In this document: piece by piece, positions 2,835 through 61,601 of the stretch | Layout of the letters: the number at the start of each line of letters is the position of its first letter | Numbering within the stretch: position 1 is the first letter of the stretch | Assembly (NCBI GenBank): GCA_023266875.1 | Contig: JAHFOJ010000001.1 | Span: 12,851-76,850, forward strand | Direction: 5' to 3' | Source of the DNA: Candidatus Giovannonibacteria bacterium | Lineage (GTDB): Bacteria; Patescibacteriota; Minisyncoccia; JACPKW01; UBA11713 | Length of the DNA: 64,000 nt | Position numbers and translations under genes: made by a program | The notes under the pieces: generated by a model | Told to the model about the DNA's origin: nothing | Database searches by the model: none | What the model saw: only the letters and a program-made list of their open reading frames with translations

Positions 2835-4364
2835 TTATTTGAAATTTAATTTAAAGCGGCTAATCGCGTTTTCTAATGCAATTTCAGTCTTCTCATTTAA
2901 GTCCCGAGATATTCGAATCGGCTCCAAAACATCTGTTTCATGCATTCGACCCAAATATTCAACAAATTCATTTTCAAATTTTGAAATATTGGCAGGCGGA
3001 ATGCCATCCAAATGACTAAAAATAGCAGTATATAAAATTGCCACCTGAAGTTCAAAAGGTATAGGAGCGCCGTTTTGCTGTTTTAAGATTTCGGTTAAAA
3101 GTTCGCCGCGTGAAATCTGCTTTTTCGTATTTTCATCAAGATCCGACGCAAATTGGATAAATGCTCTAAGCTCGCGGAACTGAGCGAGTTCGAGCCTGAG
3201 ACGAGACGCGACTTTTTTCATTGCCTTTGTCTGCGCAGCCGATCCAACGCGCGATACGGAAAGCCCTACATTCACCGCGGGTCGGATACCCTGATAAAAA
3301 AGATTTGACTCAAGATAAATTTGGCCATCAGTAATCGAAATAACATTTGTAGGAATATACGCCGCAACATCTCCAAGTTTTGTTTCTATGATCGGGAGCG
3401 CCGTAAGAGAACCTCCGCCTAATTTTGAAGACAGCTTTGCCGCGCGTTCAAGCAATCGCGAATGCAGATAAAAAATATCACCGGGATATGCCTCTCTTCC
3501 CGGTGGGCGGCGAAGAAGGAGTGAGAGCTGGCGATAAGCATCAGCGTGTTTTGATAGGTCATCATAAATAACTAGGGCATCGTGGCCGCTTTCCATAAAA
3601 TATTCGCCGATTGCGGCTCCTGCAAACGGCGCTAAATACTGCATTGATGCAGGCGCGGAAGCTGGGGCGGAAACAATTATTGTGTAAGACATCGCCCCCA
3701 TTTCTTCAAGATTTTTTAAAATCTTTGCGATTTTTGAATTCTTCTGGCCGATTGCGACATAAATGCAATAAACTTTTTGACCAGATTCATTTTTTTGATT
3801 TAAAATAGAATCAAGCGCTAAAGCGGTTTTCCCAGTCTGACGATCACCAATTATCAGCTCGCGTTGCCCTCGACCTATGGGGATCATTGCATCAATAGCT
3901 TTTGTCCCTGTATGCAAAGGCGCACTCACACTTTCCCGATCGATAACTGATGGCGCCAGTTTTTCAATTGTCATTTGTTTCGCGCTTTTTAAATTCTCAA
4001 AAGGCGCCCCCTTGCCATCGAGCGGATTTCCAAGCGGATCGATAACCCTGCCCAAAAGTTCCTCGGATACCGGTATTGAAAGCACTTGCCCGCTTTTTTT
4101 GACCCTGTCTCCAACCTTAACTTTATATCCATCCCCAAGAATTATTAGTCCAATCGATGATTCTTCCAAATTAAACGCGAGCGCGGGGATATTATCTTTG
4201 CCTGTCTCAATATATAAATATTCTTGAGCAAGAGCGCCCGAAAGACCAGAGCACTTAGCTATGCCGTCTCCAACTTCAGTTACTATGCCGATTTCCTCAA
4301 AACTCGCGTCGTCGCTGAATCTTTCTATTTCCCGCTTTAATTTTTCGACAATATCATGAGCCAT
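2835..4364 (-). CDS. atpA: F1 ATP synthase alpha subunit
   Basis: [28 protein letters not shown] motifs. Confidence 0.99.
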
Positions 4365-56814: not shown

Positions 56815-57096
56815 ATGAATCCCGTTAGAGATGATAAGTTTTATTATACCTATATATTGCGCAGCAAAAAAGATCAAAGATGGTTTACTGGTTTTACATA
56901 TGATTTACGGAAGCGCTTTATAAAACGTAATTTGAAAAGTTACGTCAACAATAAATAAAGGGCAGTTTAACTTAATATATTACGAAGCTTGTAAAATGAG
57001 GGCGACGCAAGGTCGAGGGAAAAATATTTAAAAACTGGCATGGATAAGTGTTATATTAAAAATAGATTAAAGCGCTTCCTATCTCTAACGGAATGA
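56815..57096 (+). pseudogene. GIY-YIG nuclease pseudogene with two frameshifts (not in ORF track)
   Basis: Three frame segments: MNPVRDDKFYYTYILRSKKDQRWFTGFTYDLRKRF / KVTSTINKGQFNLIYYEAC / NEGDARSREKYLKTGMDKCYIKNRLKRFLSLTE*. Confidence 0.85.
56820..57092 (+). mobile_element. putative GIY-YIG-carrying element with 12-bp terminal inverted repeats and an ATGAA duplication
   Basis: ATGAA|TCCCGTTAGAGAT...ATCTCTAACGGA|ATGAA. Confidence 0.7.
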
Positions 57097-58565
57097 ATAA
57101 TAGCAAGATTCAGGATAAAATTCACCCATCCACCAAAGATTTTGGCGGGCGGGTTCATGCAATTGGCTGTGACGTGACCGAAAGACAGCTTCAAAACTCC
57201 CTTGAAAAAATTGCCGCGATCCCAAGCCTTTCATCAAAGATAGTTTGCCTGCCAGATCTCTATTTAAAAGCGCGCACAGAGGCTCCCGCGTCAATTGTCA
57301 CAGCAATAAATAACGCGATAGTGCCGACCCTTTCCGCGCCTTCACTCGGCTGTAGTATGGGCGTAATCGCGACGAATCTTACAGCAAAGGATTTAACCGA
57401 AAATACCGAGCGCGTTTTTTTTAATCACATGCAAGATGAGCTGGGTAAATATTATAACTTCTGGGACAACATCGCGGTTTGGCTTGGGCTCAAAACACGC
57501 CGGTTAAATAAGTACGACCTTTCTTTGGAAGAATTCGACGGCATCGTCAAGAGAGGGGCGAAAGCCGCAATCCAGCGTTATGGTTTTTCTGAAAAAATCC
57601 TCGAAAATATAGAATGGGGCGGATCAGTCTATTCGAATGAGGAAATTCGAAACTTGGATCTCAAAAAAATATTACCACGCTCTTCATTCACCAATGGACG
57701 TCACGATCTAGGCTACGGATTTAAAGGAAATCATTTCCTTGAGATTCATGTGATTGAAGATATTTTCGACTCAAAAACCGCTTCAGCTTGGGGGCTTTCA
57801 AAAGATCAAATTGTTATCTTCTACCACGGCGGCGGAGGCATGGTGCCATATCACATGGGGCGTTACTACGCCAATCGCATGAAAAATAATCTTAAGCAAA
57901 AATTCTTCTTAAGAATCGGAAAGTTGTTTTTTCATCTTTTTTCCATGGATGGAATAAAAAATTTCAGAGAGCGCGCGCGCTATTACTTTTTTCCCGAACT
58001 TTTTCAGGAAATTAAGGCTGATTCTATGGAAGGTATACGTTACGGGCTCGCGATTAAAGCTGCGCTCAACTACAGCTACGCTTTTAATATCGCATTAATG
58101 GCGCGGGTGCGAGATGCTCTGAAAAATACTTTCAAAGATAAGAATATTGAAATCAAACCGATATATGCTCTCGTCCATAATTCGATTATCAAAGAAAAAG
58201 TTGGGCCGCACGAGCTATTTGTACATCGCCACACATTAAATCGTGTCGAGGAAGGAAAGCCGACAATTCTTTCGGGCTTCAATAACACAATTTCTTATAT
58301 CGGTATTGGGCTAAAGCCGCCTCCAGAGACGCTCTGGTCGGCTGAACATGGCGCGGGAGAAAATATAAAACGTTTCGAGCGTGAAGGAAAATCTAGAGAA
58401 GACAGCGGCCGCGAAACTATTATTTTCAAGACAAAACCGCCCCCTGCGACGCACGTTAAACATAGAACGGCCGAGGGAGTTGATTTCGTTATGACGAAAC
58501 TTGAAGAAGCCGGATTAATGCGAAAAGTATTATCATTAAGACCGCTGGCTAGTTTTAAAGGATAA
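57093..58565 (+). CDS. divergent RtcB-fold protein
   Basis: LPD, LGCSM, GNHFLEI, YHGG, VHNS, VHR, SAEHGAG, terminal KG. Confidence 0.85.
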   Translation: MNNSKIQDKIHPSTKDFGGRVHAIGCDVTERQLQNSLEKIAAIPSLSSKIVCLPDLYLKARTEAPASIVTAINNAIVPTLSAPSLGCSMGVIATNLTAKDLTENTERVFFNHMQDELGKYYNFWDNIAVWLGLKTRRLNKYDLSLEEFDGIVKRGAKAAIQRYGFSEKILENIEWGGSVYSNEEIRNLDLKKILPRSSFTNGRHDLGYGFKGNHFLEIHVIEDIFDSKTASAWGLSKDQIVIFYHGGGGMVPYHMGRYYANRMKNNLKQKFFLRIGKLFFHLFSMDGIKNFRERARYYFFPELFQEIKADSMEGIRYGLAIKAALNYSYAFNIALMARVRDALKNTFKDKNIEIKPIYALVHNSIIKEKVGPHELFVHRHTLNRVEEGKPTILSGFNNTISYIGIGLKPPPETLWSAEHGAGENIKRFEREGKSREDSGRETIIFKTKPPPATHVKHRTAEGVDFVMTKLEEAGLMRKVLSLRPLASFKG

Positions 58566-58568
58566 AAT

Positions 58569-59408
58569 ATGGATTCAACCAAAGAACTTCGCCAAAAACT
58601 ACAAGCATTTAAATACGAAGGACGCGAACGCCCGTGGGGTTATCGCGCGCTTCAGCGAGGACCATCGATTTATATTACACGTTTCGCAATCAAGCACGAT
58701 CTCACCCCGAATCAGATTACACTTGCGGGAATTATCTGCGGAATAATCGGCAGTTTTCTTGTATTTTTCGCCTTGCCATTTAAAATAGCGGGCGCGATTT
58801 TGCTATATGCCAATATTCTCTCCGATAAAGTTGATGGTGAAACTGCCCGCTTCCGCATCCAAGAAAAAAGAGGAAAAGTTTATCTGCGAGGAGTATACTT
58901 AGACGAACTTAATCATCTCATAATTCCTCCCCTCTTTTTGCTCGGAGTAACGCTTGGAATTATTTCAAATTTCCCCTATAACACGTCCATCCTTGCCTTC
59001 ACAGGCCTATTTGCTACGCTCTCCCTCCCTTTCCTTCGAGTTTATCATTCGCTCGCTCCGCAGATTTTCATGAAAAAATATATAAAACATCCTGAATTAT
59101 TCTCTCCATTGCCTCATGCGAACGAGCCTGATCCAATATTCCAGATCAAAAAGAAATATTCTCCTCTAAAGAAATTTATTCAAGCAATTCATCAATTGCA
59201 AGATTTTTTTATAATAGTTTTCTTATTATTTCTCTCATTTTTGGGTGAGATAACAATGCCGATGTTCCGTCCGCATTTGCTTTCAGGCCTGCTTGTAGTA
59301 ATCCTTGGGATTATCCTGCCGCTTATCGTCATCGAAAATTCAATTAAAGGATTCTTTCAAATCGAACACCGCGTGCGGGACATTAAAGATAAATACTGGC
59401 AGAAATAG
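58569..59408 (+). CDS. CDP-alcohol phosphotransferase family protein
   Basis: TPNQIT and D.VDGETAR...G..LD..NH motif; TMs. Confidence 0.88.
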   Translation: MDSTKELRQKLQAFKYEGRERPWGYRALQRGPSIYITRFAIKHDLTPNQITLAGIICGIIGSFLVFFALPFKIAGAILLYANILSDKVDGETARFRIQEKRGKVYLRGVYLDELNHLIIPPLFLLGVTLGIISNFPYNTSILAFTGLFATLSLPFLRVYHSLAPQIFMKKYIKHPELFSPLPHANEPDPIFQIKKKYSPLKKFIQAIHQLQDFFIIVFLLFLSFLGEITMPMFRPHLLSGLLVVILGIILPLIVIENSIKGFFQIEHRVRDIKDKYWQK

Positions 59409-59412
59409 AAAG

Positions 59413-60492
59413 TTAATTTTCTGTGTTGAAAAGTGAAATAAACTCGCGAACCTCTCTCTCTTTCCCGAATTTCTCGGCGAATTCAAGGCCAGCTTTGCGA
59501 AATTTATCGTAAAGTTCTTCGTCCGCCAAAAGTTTTCTTATTTTCTTGCCGAATTCGGCGACATCTCCGGGCTTTATTAAAAACTCTTCGAAGCCGGCTG
59601 GTGCAATATCTCTAACTCCGCCAACATCGGACGCGACAAACGGCGTTCCAGCGGCCATCGCCTCCAGAAGAGAATGCGGCACGCCTTCCTCGCGAGATGG
59701 CATTAAAAAGGCATCTGCCGCTTGATAATAAGCGACCATATCGCGATTCGGAACAGGCCCGATAACTTTGACAGGTATATGCGAACCAAGCGCTTCTGCC
59801 TCAAGTGATTCGCGGTACGGACCATCGCCGACAACAAACAAAACAGCATCAGAATCTCGAATGTAAGATATGATCGGCACCAAAAGATCCGCGCCTTTTC
59901 TCTCTGATAGGTGGTGAACAAAAAGAATCAGTTTTGTAGATCCTTTAATTCCAAACCAGCTTTTTGTGGCCTCTTTGCTTTCCTTTGGCAAAAAACGTCC
60001 GGCATCCACCCAATTTGAAACAATCTTCCATTTACGAACACGAAAATGCTTTACATATTCTTCAGCAAGACTCTTAGACCCTGTAACTAAAGTTGTGTGG
60101 CGCAAAATAAATCTAAAACACCGCTCCTCAAAAAAACCGCGGCGAAAAAGCCAAGGCATGCCGCAATTCCAATAAGAAACTCTCAAGCGGGCAAGCCAGC
60201 CTGCGAGCGCTCCATAATATGAGTAGTGAACATAAATATTATTGTATCCTTCTTTTTTCAGCCGCCTCAAAATAAAATAAAGTTCAAAAAAACGCGCAAT
60301 TCCTTTTTTGTGTTTCTGGACCAGAAATGGAACGTTAAGATTAATCGGACTTACAGCGTTTTCTATCACCGCATAAATATCAATCGCGGAACTTGCGGCG
60401 CGGATCAGCTCATAATTATAAAACAAATGAGTATCAGTTTTGTCGTCATACTTAGGCAAAATATAAATTACCTTTTCAGACATGCCTTCCAT
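59413..60492 (-). CDS. GT4 glycosyltransferase
   Basis: RKG, PSREEGVPHSLLEAMAAG. Confidence 0.92.
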   Translation of the reverse strand: MEGMSEKVIYILPKYDDKTDTHLFYNYELIRAASSAIDIYAVIENAVSPINLNVPFLVQKHKKGIARFFELYFILRRLKKEGYNNIYVHYSYYGALAGWLARLRVSYWNCGMPWLFRRGFFEERCFRFILRHTTLVTGSKSLAEEYVKHFRVRKWKIVSNWVDAGRFLPKESKEATKSWFGIKGSTKLILFVHHLSERKGADLLVPIISYIRDSDAVLFVVGDGPYRESLEAEALGSHIPVKVIGPVPNRDMVAYYQAADAFLMPSREEGVPHSLLEAMAAGTPFVASDVGGVRDIAPAGFEEFLIKPGDVAEFGKKIRKLLADEELYDKFRKAGLEFAEKFGKEREVREFISLFNTEN

Positions 60493-61601
60493 GATTCAAC
60501 TAATTTATTCCTATAATCATCAAATGAAACATAAGGCCGGGGAGTATTTTTTGCTCCTTCGGAAAGTTTTTTCAAGAAAGTTTTGTCATTTTTAATTTTA
60601 GTTAATGATCCAACAAGCGCTGATCGATCCCCAACCGGAAAAATAATCCCGTTTTGCCCGTCTTTAACAACTTCATGGGCGAGCCCAACGTCCGTCATTA
60701 AGACAGGAAGCCTCGATCCAAGCGCTTCAAGCGCAGCAAGGCTATATCCTTCGTAATTCGATGTTATTAATAGGCAATCCGCGCTCTGATAGTAATCAGC
60801 AAGATCTTCGGCTGATTTCCATCCTTCAAAATAAACATTCCCCTCAAGCCCATATTTTGCTTCATCTTCAAGGCGCGTCCGAAGCAACCCATCGCCTACA
60901 ATTACCAGCAAAATTTCCGGTCCCTTATTTACAATTTCACGAAACGCGTCAAGCGCGAGCGATATATTTTTTTCATGAGTTAGGCGAGAAGCCATTAAAA
61001 CATATAACTCATATCCCGGGTATTTCTTTTTAATATCCAACCATCCTTTCGGCTTACTTGCATCCGAATAAATCGGCAAGACACGGATAGTTGGCAGTTT
61101 ATAGTTTATAGTTTTTAGAATGGAGTTTTTGATCCGTTCGGATACAACCCGAATTCCATCAGCTCGCGGAATCAGGAAACTAGCTAACCAAATCCTGATT
61201 TTGTTAAAAAAAGATCCTCTAAAATAGTAAGGGCTAAAAATATCCGCATGAATTTGCATCTGCCACGGAACGCTAAATTTCTTTGAAAGTTTCCAAGCTA
61301 AAAACGAATGCTCGATTTCCTGCGCGGTAATCAAATCAAATTTCTCGCGCAATAAAACTGCCCTAGCTTTTTTATATCCCTTCCAAAATCGAAATAATTT
61401 CCCATCTTTCGCATCAATTTTTATAATTTCAAGTTTGTCCAAAACCTTTGCATATTCCCGCATCCGCAAAAAAACCGCGCTCCCCGCCTCATCCACCCAT
61501 GGATCCGATGAAAACATTAGAACTTTCATCCCGTTAGAAATCCGACCCGCTGTAGGCGCGTTGGTAGAAATCTCCGGTTTCTTATTTCTAACGGGATTCA
61601 T
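60468..61601 (-). CDS. GT4 glycosyltransferase; first 24 aa derive from a repeat element (ancestral start 61529)
   Basis: SRLTHEKN, SNYEGYSLAALEA; ATG at 61601 overlaps the upstream stop (ATGA). Confidence 0.9.
   Translation of the reverse strand: MNPVRNKKPEISTNAPTAGRISNGMKVLMFSSDPWVDEAGSAVFLRMREYAKVLDKLEIIKIDAKDGKLFRFWKGYKKARAVLLREKFDLITAQEIEHSFLAWKLSKKFSVPWQMQIHADIFSPYYFRGSFFNKIRIWLASFLIPRADGIRVVSERIKNSILKTINYKLPTIRVLPIYSDASKPKGWLDIKKKYPGYELYVLMASRLTHEKNISLALDAFREIVNKGPEILLVIVGDGLLRTRLEDEAKYGLEGNVYFEGWKSAEDLADYYQSADCLLITSNYEGYSLAALEALGSRLPVLMTDVGLAHEVVKDGQNGIIFPVGDRSALVGSLTKIKNDKTFLKKLSEGAKNTPRPYVSFDDYRNKLVESWKACLKR
61530..61596 (-). mobile_element. MITE-like miniature element sharing inverted repeats with the GIY-YIG element
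   Basis: ATGAA|TCCCGTTAGAAAT...ATTTCTAACGGG|ATGAA on the minus strand; ATG-to-ATG distance 72 nt. Confidence 0.75.

Follow-up and report, generated by a model that had tools for sequence, protein, structure and literature searches.

Introduction

In the main texts of PMC10969869 and PMC3184786, bacterial MITEs such as Correia, RUP, ERIC and BOX are described as short, non-coding sequences that have terminal inverted repeats (TIRs) and a target duplication, occur in many copies and form stem-loops. Repeats that extend the 5' ends of genes or fuse with them in frame have already been described (main text of PMC3184786), and the palindromic elements of Rickettsia (RPE) are inserted in frame within protein genes (main text of PMC10969869). 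Two further systems join a small enzyme gene to flanking repeats that are also dispersed on their own. REP/TIR repeats enclose RAYT/TIRYT genes (main text of PMC3733652), and Ssn GIY-YIG nucleases are accompanied by NTS/SRM hairpins (accessible text of PMC11893778).

Here we describe an inverted-repeat element at the start of a GT4 glycosyltransferase gene of a Candidatus Giovannonibacteria bacterium (genome G000). The window, which is the whole stretch of DNA analysed, comprises 64,000 nucleotides of contig JAHFOJ010000001.1. We consider it probable that the insert is a copy, devoid of genes, of a widespread family of inverted-repeat elements. On this view it entered the ATGAA start of the GT4 gene, where it duplicated TGAA and restored the ATG by contributing its terminal base; the 94-residue GIY-YIG protein encoded by full-length copies likely moved it in trans, and its open frame of 24 codons likely functions to let ribosomes pass and not to provide a useful peptide.

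Results

A 68-bp element is inserted at the start of the GT4 gene

On the minus strand, positions 61601-61525 read ATGAA, TCCCGTTAGAAAT, 42 nt, ATTTCTAACGGG and ATGAA (Table 1). The element itself is 68 bp long (61596-61529), has perfect 13-bp TIRs and holds no mobility gene. The arm CCCGTTAGARAT, with at most one mismatch, has five matches in the window against 0.55 expected, and 0 of 100 shuffles reach five.

A first-pass annotation of this DNA had measured the inverted repeats as 12 bp and taken ATGAA as the duplicated target. The repeats are indeed perfect, but their boundary lies one base further out. In 124 metagenome copies, chosen with an A before TGAA, the terminal bases outside the 9-bp cores are T-A in 76 cases and C-G in 48, with no mixed pair. 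Because the outer bases pair in this way, they are part of the TIR, which is 13 bp with terminal T/A in the focal copy; a 5-bp ATGAA duplication is rejected, and the duplication is the 4-bp TGAA. The last purine of an element, together with the TG that follows, gives a rebuilt ATG or GTG. Two other statements of the annotation hold as made: the 24 codons from ATG to ATG (72 nt) are free of stops and encode MNPVRNKKPEISTNAPTAGRISNG ahead of MKVLMFS of a GT4 enzyme (PF00534, E 5e-36), and the coupling to the stop of the upstream gene is kept.

Table 1. Features of the GT4 start region and of the candidate partner element (window coordinates).
Feature	Position	Strand	Remarks
Upstream Cys-rich gene, 578 aa	61598..63334	-	TGA 61600-61598 lies within the first copy of the target duplication and overlaps the first ATG (ATGA)
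Target duplication, upstream copy, TGAA	61597..61600	-	the A of the target, 61601, stands before it; original ATG 61601-61599
24 added codons in the GT4 frame	61530..61601	-	predicted unstructured
Left TIR, 13 bp, TCCCGTTAGAAAT	61584..61596	-	
Internal hairpin 1 (two-hairpin subfamily)	61566..61582	-	supported by folding and by compensatory change in 13 relatives
Internal hairpin 2, imperfect in the focal copy	61542..61564	-	RNA folding and compensatory changes in relatives
Right TIR, 13 bp	61529..61541	-	its terminal A begins the rebuilt ATG (61529-61527)
Target duplication, downstream copy, TGAA	61525..61528	-	
GT4 glycosyltransferase from ancestral start MKVLMFS	60468..61529	-	
274-bp element, same ends (one right-arm mismatch), broken GIY-YIG gene	56820..57093	+	TGAA at 56816-56819 and 57094-57097

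Comparison with relatives establishes that the 68-bp segment was inserted into the GT4 start. GT4 homologs are present in 26 of the 61 genomes searched. All six same-family orthologs are without the element and begin at MK(V/I)/MRV-LMFSS, in agreement with the ortholog start that the annotation had asked about. The tail as a conserved part of GT4 is rejected, as no ortholog carries the extension. The Cys-rich gene also precedes the GT4 ortholog in L002, L004 and L006. Two syntenic relatives (G004 and G003) have an empty coupled junction, with the same upstream gene, the same ATGA overlap and an alignment gap of exactly 72 bp; a third aligned relative (G007) has an empty site with a 4-nt spacer. 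Across the 26 GT4 homolog loci the TIR pair is missing from the start in 25. The exception, a distant homolog (L025, G018:C38), has a copy with a different interior at the same start, out of frame; this is an independent insertion that adds no peptide. The GT4 homolog gene at L025 also looks frameshifted. One DNA read set, possibly from the source sample, gave no contig that spans 61525-61601, and RNA reads of the same sample gave no match; neither result counts as evidence on the insertion. In the AlphaFold prediction of the extended GT4, residues 1-20 have pLDDT below 50, the first strand spans residues 26-31 and the fold is intact; ortholog alignment has no depth across the tail.

The element belongs to a widespread family that concentrates at start codons

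G000 contains 26 copies of 27-120 bp, of which 19 lie at ORF starts, two in frame within genes and five elsewhere; this count excludes 10 loose pairs, which are outer partners of nested pairs or have weak arms. Neither outcome that the annotation had named as contradicting it, an extension shared by all orthologs or a genome devoid of further repeat pairs, was seen. Perfect TIR pairs occur in 81 of 151 class genomes, and the reversed-pattern control gives 0. In 2 of the 64 parts of a species-genome set, at least 125 stretches were found, in Patescibacteria, Omnitrophota, Planctomycetota and others. The viral contigs scanned yielded one copy only, which gives no indication that phages carry the family. 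A pair of identical 96-bp copies, separated by 561 bp, sits at successive gene starts (G000:C13:3389-3484 and 3950-4045), which suggests recent local spread. G077 has about 50 near-identical copies of 31-41 bp followed by GTG, in a REP-like burst in a genome without a close GIY-YIG match.

Among 124 unbiased copies, the exact 4-bp duplication is found in 60, against 9% across elements, and is absent from 64; the target consensus is R-T-V-A-A. At least 12 of the 124 have inverted flanks, with TTTA on the left and TGAA or TAAA on the right (e.g., L072, L087, L114, L122 and L132).

Insertions concentrate at start codons among ATGAA-flanked copies. Of 124 such copies, 88 are at starts, six at internal Met codons and 30 at other or unclear sites, compared with 202 starts among the 2319 ATGAA sites of G000, gene starts being assigned by an ORF rule and not from annotation. 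Starts relative to ORF-free sites are 88:14 for the copies and 202:764 for the genomic sites, where 764 is inflated by sites close to gene ends. The target specificity for ATGAA starts proposed at first pass is therefore retained as an enrichment, but the general target is R-T-V-A-A and not ATGAA alone. Insertion is also not limited to starts, because the unbiased set (n = 119 here) has 27 intragenic copies (26 in frame) and 63 at other sites, besides 26 at starts.

The same distribution could arise with no start-codon targeting beyond RTVAA, if the excess at starts reflected purging of other insertions and GT4 were made from the second ATG. We regard this account as possible though on balance doubtful. 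The spread of the unbiased set is in its favour, as are the two internal in-frame copies of G000, each missing in 5/5 orthologs: one with a 27-bp core at an internal Met of KsgA, adding 11 aa (G000:C9:31008-31034, L412:403-1221), and one with a 48-bp core inside a conserved unnamed protein, adding 18 aa (G000:C6:68728-68775, L411:340-1380). The excess of 88:14 over 202:764 speaks against it, with the inflation of 764 in mind. On targeting, however, purging is compatible with our preferred explanation, since selection can explain much of the start excess, and the two differ only on which ATG is used.

Full-length relatives carry a GIY-YIG gene that spans both TIRs

At position 57093, the 274-bp element at 56.8 kb restores the ATG start codon of an RtcB-family gene. 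Its GIY-YIG gene (PF01541) contains stops and frameshifts and is a pseudogene. The focal insert had been described as a miniature copy of this element and as its non-autonomous partner. The focal copy is non-autonomous, and it shares its ends with the GIY-YIG family, but the 56.8-kb copy is broken and cannot now be the active partner, and the interiors are unlike: alignment of the 42-nt focal interior with the two strands of the GIY-YIG interior gives scores of 13 and 11, where shuffles average 15.3 and 13.8. An origin of the focal interior by internal deletion of the 56.8-kb element is rejected on these scores.

The RtcB-family gene and a CDP-alcohol phosphotransferase gene (57093-59408, plus strand) lie on the opposite strand within a glycosyltransferase cluster. 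The RtcB-family gene is present in one of five relatives searched, where it is duplicated and the matches begin at residue 18-28; the TIR was not found in that relative's RtcB loci, where the matches miss the first 17 or more residues. None of the other four GIY-YIG genes of G000 has these TIR ends, and that the one TIR-bracketed gene found in this genome is broken speaks against the nuclease as mover. The GIY-YIG genes at G000:C20:4764-5015 and C19:43407-43604, without these TIRs, stand directly before tRNA genes (tRNA-Asn confirmed), and the former has a different palindrome upstream.

Intact relatives of the GIY-YIG gene (n = 60) have the consensus MNPVR...SLTG with invariant Y13, Y24, R32, H38 and E70. 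The product is 94 aa and the full-length elements are 268-285 bp. The ORF begins at the ATG of the target, runs through both TIRs and ends at the TGA of the duplication, which overlaps the rebuilt host start. The named relatives of this nuclease are Patescibacteria. Its predicted fold has a pLDDT of 89.5, and its best solved relatives are UPF0213/Slx1-like nucleases: 1zg2 by sequence (E 4e-12), and by fold 1zg2 followed by Slx1. We know of no UPF0213 or Slx1-like GIY-YIG nuclease that forms part of a TIR-bounded element.

What, then, moves copies that hold no gene? We take the GIY-YIG nuclease to be the likely mover. In the loci examined, no recognised transposase was found between TIRs; the only hit was PF01541 GIY-YIG, with NCBIfam hits below threshold. 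Of the best 30 class loci with GIY-YIG, 26 are bracketed by TIRs, a count that is partly circular because the GIY-YIG profile includes TIR-encoded residues; of these 26, 16 have the duplication and 19 lie on a start codon.

It is nevertheless conceivable, and in our view unlikely, that the family is a MITE moved by some other enzyme, with the GIY-YIG gene riding as a passenger within its ends. Whole tRNA genes are also enclosed by these ends, so the nuclease might likewise be cargo. For example, the TIRs at G000:C14:49637-49725 (L413:238-326) surround a whole tRNA-Thr(TGT), which lies just past the anticodon in a broken tRNA-Thr-like sequence, with the two halves of that sequence's acceptor on either side; tRNA-Val and tRNA-Pro genes are enclosed in G004 and G031, and other copies hold further tRNA-like cargo. 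A passenger would also fit interiors that do not derive from the GIY-YIG gene, and a close GIY-YIG match is missing in 29 of the 45 genomes with at least five TIR pairs, including the three richest (G077, G108 and G018). In addition, GIY-YIG domains are to our knowledge hydrolytic nucleases, and we know of no strand-joining step for them. Several observations weigh against a passenger. At least five TIR pairs are found in 16 of 23 genomes with a close GIY-YIG and in 29 of 128 others (odds ratio 7.8; kin are not independent). Of 14 TIR pairs that are spaced 160-3000 bp, have a duplication and enclose no further TIR, 13 are GIY-YIG elements and one spans a host gene, in a set from the loci examined that is biased by the GIY-YIG search. 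The ORF running through both TIRs is a further point, as is the co-variation of the arms: in GIY-YIG elements with variant ends (CCCGTACGA; L206, L210, L216 and L221), both arms are altered together.

The open frame resembles a ribosome relay more than a source of peptides

The focal interior belongs to a GC-rich two-hairpin subfamily. The focal strand folds more stably than shuffles (z = -3.7 as RNA, -5.65 as DNA), and the RNA structure, at -28.5 kcal/mol, takes in part of the second ATG. Among 13 two-hairpin members chosen by pattern, 15 of 26 base pairs show compensatory change, and the peptides across copies vary between the TIR-encoded ends, being constant only at PVR and SNG. Judged by these alignments, base pairing and not the peptide is the conserved trait of the subfamily. 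L361, the closest sibling, keeps the same frame open where just 10 codons and no long ORF follow, which indicates that the open frame is carried along by the element. Of the two-hairpin copies, 35 of 50 have lengths that are multiples of 3 whatever the context, or 19 of 30 after clustering.

This bias does not hold for start codons in general. Net lengths modulo 3 are 28/26/34 for the 88 ATGAA-flanked start copies (p 0.82) and 14/21/26 for a second set from 61 genome rows, so that a multiple-of-3 bias at starts is rejected. In the unbiased copies 66 of 124 are multiples of 3 over all contexts; by context the counts are 9/10/7 at starts and 30/20/13 at other sites, with 26 of 27 intragenic copies in frame. 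The overall bias comes mainly from intragenic copies.

Among the 88 start copies, the frame entered at the first ATG is open in 47, against 25 and 25 for the other two frames, and after clustering in 43 of 81 against 23 and 22 (p 2e-4), statistics that were obtained with mononucleotide shuffles on related copies from a pattern-selected pool. Of the 47 open frames, 14 stop at the TAA of the TIR, 7 nt ahead of the new start, 18 stop in an ATGA overlap and 15 read through. Read-through occurs in 23 of 143 pooled start copies, all of at most 86 bp, and in G000 the focal copy is the only one of 19 start-site copies to show it. Copies longer than 86 bp are open in 13 of 16 coupled cases (1.4 expected) and 12 of 27 uncoupled cases (2.2 expected); divided by frame, 0 of 9 long in-frame copies and 25 of 34 long out-of-frame copies are open. 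For short copies, coupled and uncoupled sites (26/41 and 32/59 open) do not differ significantly. Entered from the opposite end, the reverse-strand frame is open at a similar rate (46/88), which fits insertion either way round, but also composition. From these counts, long fusions look avoided and relays kept, and a frame kept open until a stop that the TIR encodes next to the rebuilt start likely acts as a ribosome relay.

The idea that the family is a route to new N-terminal peptides does not survive these results. It is weak because starts have no modulo-3 bias, only 23 of 143 copies read through and no long in-frame copy is open. That the 24-residue tail is a retained useful addition is very improbable: the focal frame is stop-free, short in-frame start copies read through more often than expected (15/28 against 7.7) and tails of this sort arise in those 23 copies, and the KsgA start of G004 has a 24-aa tail similar to the focal one, but the tail is found in no ortholog, is predicted to be unstructured, belongs to a subfamily that conserves pairing, and is kept as an open frame by L361 with almost nothing behind it. 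The G004 tail comes from a 72-bp two-hairpin copy (L420/L063, G004:C1:87824-87889); KsgA in G000 starts with a short addition different from it.

Which product is made from the focal gene depends on the two ATGs. An overlap of stop and start has been tied to termination-reinitiation, whose efficiency is expected to drop with distance (main text of PMC6728339). The extended GT4 is the likelier product because the second ATG lies 72 nt further on and its first two bases are in a 14-bp stem. The 16S 3' end was not found in the G000 contigs. The 24-residue tail is likely a by-product of letting ribosomes pass and not a new function; it is probably incidental, and the focal copy an ordinary member of its family.

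Discussion

The mechanism that we favour is as follows. An intact copy, once present or elsewhere, would supply the nuclease in trans. The nuclease may cleave the hairpin ends together with an RTVAA target, using a 4-nt stagger; repair by the host may then complete the join and leave the 4-bp duplication. These two steps are the least secure of the scheme. Ribosomes ending the upstream gene would then restart at the overlapping first ATG and produce GT4 with a loose 24-aa tail. In the family at large, translation from the first ATG could run its course harmlessly in three ways: by reading through, by stopping 7 nt ahead of the rebuilt start, or by stopping in an ATGA overlap with that start. 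The family may survive at gene starts because its ends provide for all three.

A bolder version can be proposed, in which a 280-bp transposon and its MITEs would be mobilised by the 94-residue GIY-YIG protein alone, which would add a new class of enzyme to those that transpose bacterial DNA. In this version the ends would hijack and rebuild start codons, gene-less copies would relay ribosomes, and the family would colonise starts in streamlined genomes, carry tRNAs and occasionally add tails to proteins. We offer it tentatively, as falling a little short of an even chance.

The element is found in over half of the sampled class genomes, so start-codon calls are affected. Spurious annotations from the family include MNPVR...SNG tails and MNPVR...LTG small ORFs. 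The family also illustrates how a selfish element may persist in streamlined, densely coupled genomes, by landing on a start codon, rebuilding it and handing the ribosome on. The main interest of the family is the mobiliser question: if the mobiliser is the GIY-YIG protein, this would be a transposition system of very small size, and its enzyme would be of a type not known to act in transposition.

Comparison with known systems

No description of this element family was found in the literature searched, which consisted of main texts, mostly of open papers, with PMC12455944 and PMC11602168 checked by term. Its features nevertheless overlap with those of several described systems. With bacterial MITEs (PMC10969869, PMC3184786) it shares short length, absence of coding sequence, TIRs, target duplication, many copies and stem-loops, and it has an empty site, dispersed copies and a longer element with the same ends. 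It departs from them in that its copies share only the ends, with widely varying interiors, and in that an end rebuilds start codons and supplies stops. Internal deletion of the 56.8-kb element was not the origin of the focal interior, and the full-length form holds a 94-aa GIY-YIG gene and not a recognised transposase; the term 'GIY' does not occur in the main texts of those two papers.

Within genes the closest likeness is to RPE, as palindromic in-frame inserts of which 26 of the 27 intragenic copies here are multiples of 3. RPE are about 150 bp and keep a conserved peptide (main text of PMC10969869), against 27-120 bp for the copies in G000, in which the peptide is constant only at the TIR-encoded PVR and SNG. 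Unlike RPE, the family has a clear TIR, a duplication and a candidate mobiliser, and in G000 start codons are its main site. The arrangement of REP/TIR repeats with RAYT/TIRYT is alike in placing a small enzyme gene between inverted repeats that are also dispersed (main text of PMC3733652). The enzyme differs, being an HUH tyrosine transposase there and a GIY-YIG protein here, and 'GIY-YIG' does not occur in the main text of that paper.

The accessible text of Chenal 2025 (PMC11893778) makes no mention of CPR, start codons or duplications. The Ssn nucleases that it describes, with their NTS/SRM hairpins, resemble the system reported here in the single-domain GIY-YIG protein (94 aa here), in flanking repeats that are also dispersed and in catalytic spacing (Y6/Y17/E64 in Ssn, Y13/Y24/E70 here). 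The repeat is different, and here the repeats are the ends of the element and lie inside the ORF. Four NTS-adjacent GIY-YIG proxies, standing in for SsnA in a comparison with the cd10448 clade, group apart from the nuclease described here (98/98 support), with 18-23 identities over 62-68 aa; the first 13 NTS bases, with two mismatches, have three matches in the window against 1.14 expected, none near either element. As far as the accessible text of PMC11893778 goes, Ssn/NTS is the nearest known pair of enzyme and repeat, and in its behaviour the family acts like a MITE and, within genes, like an RPE.
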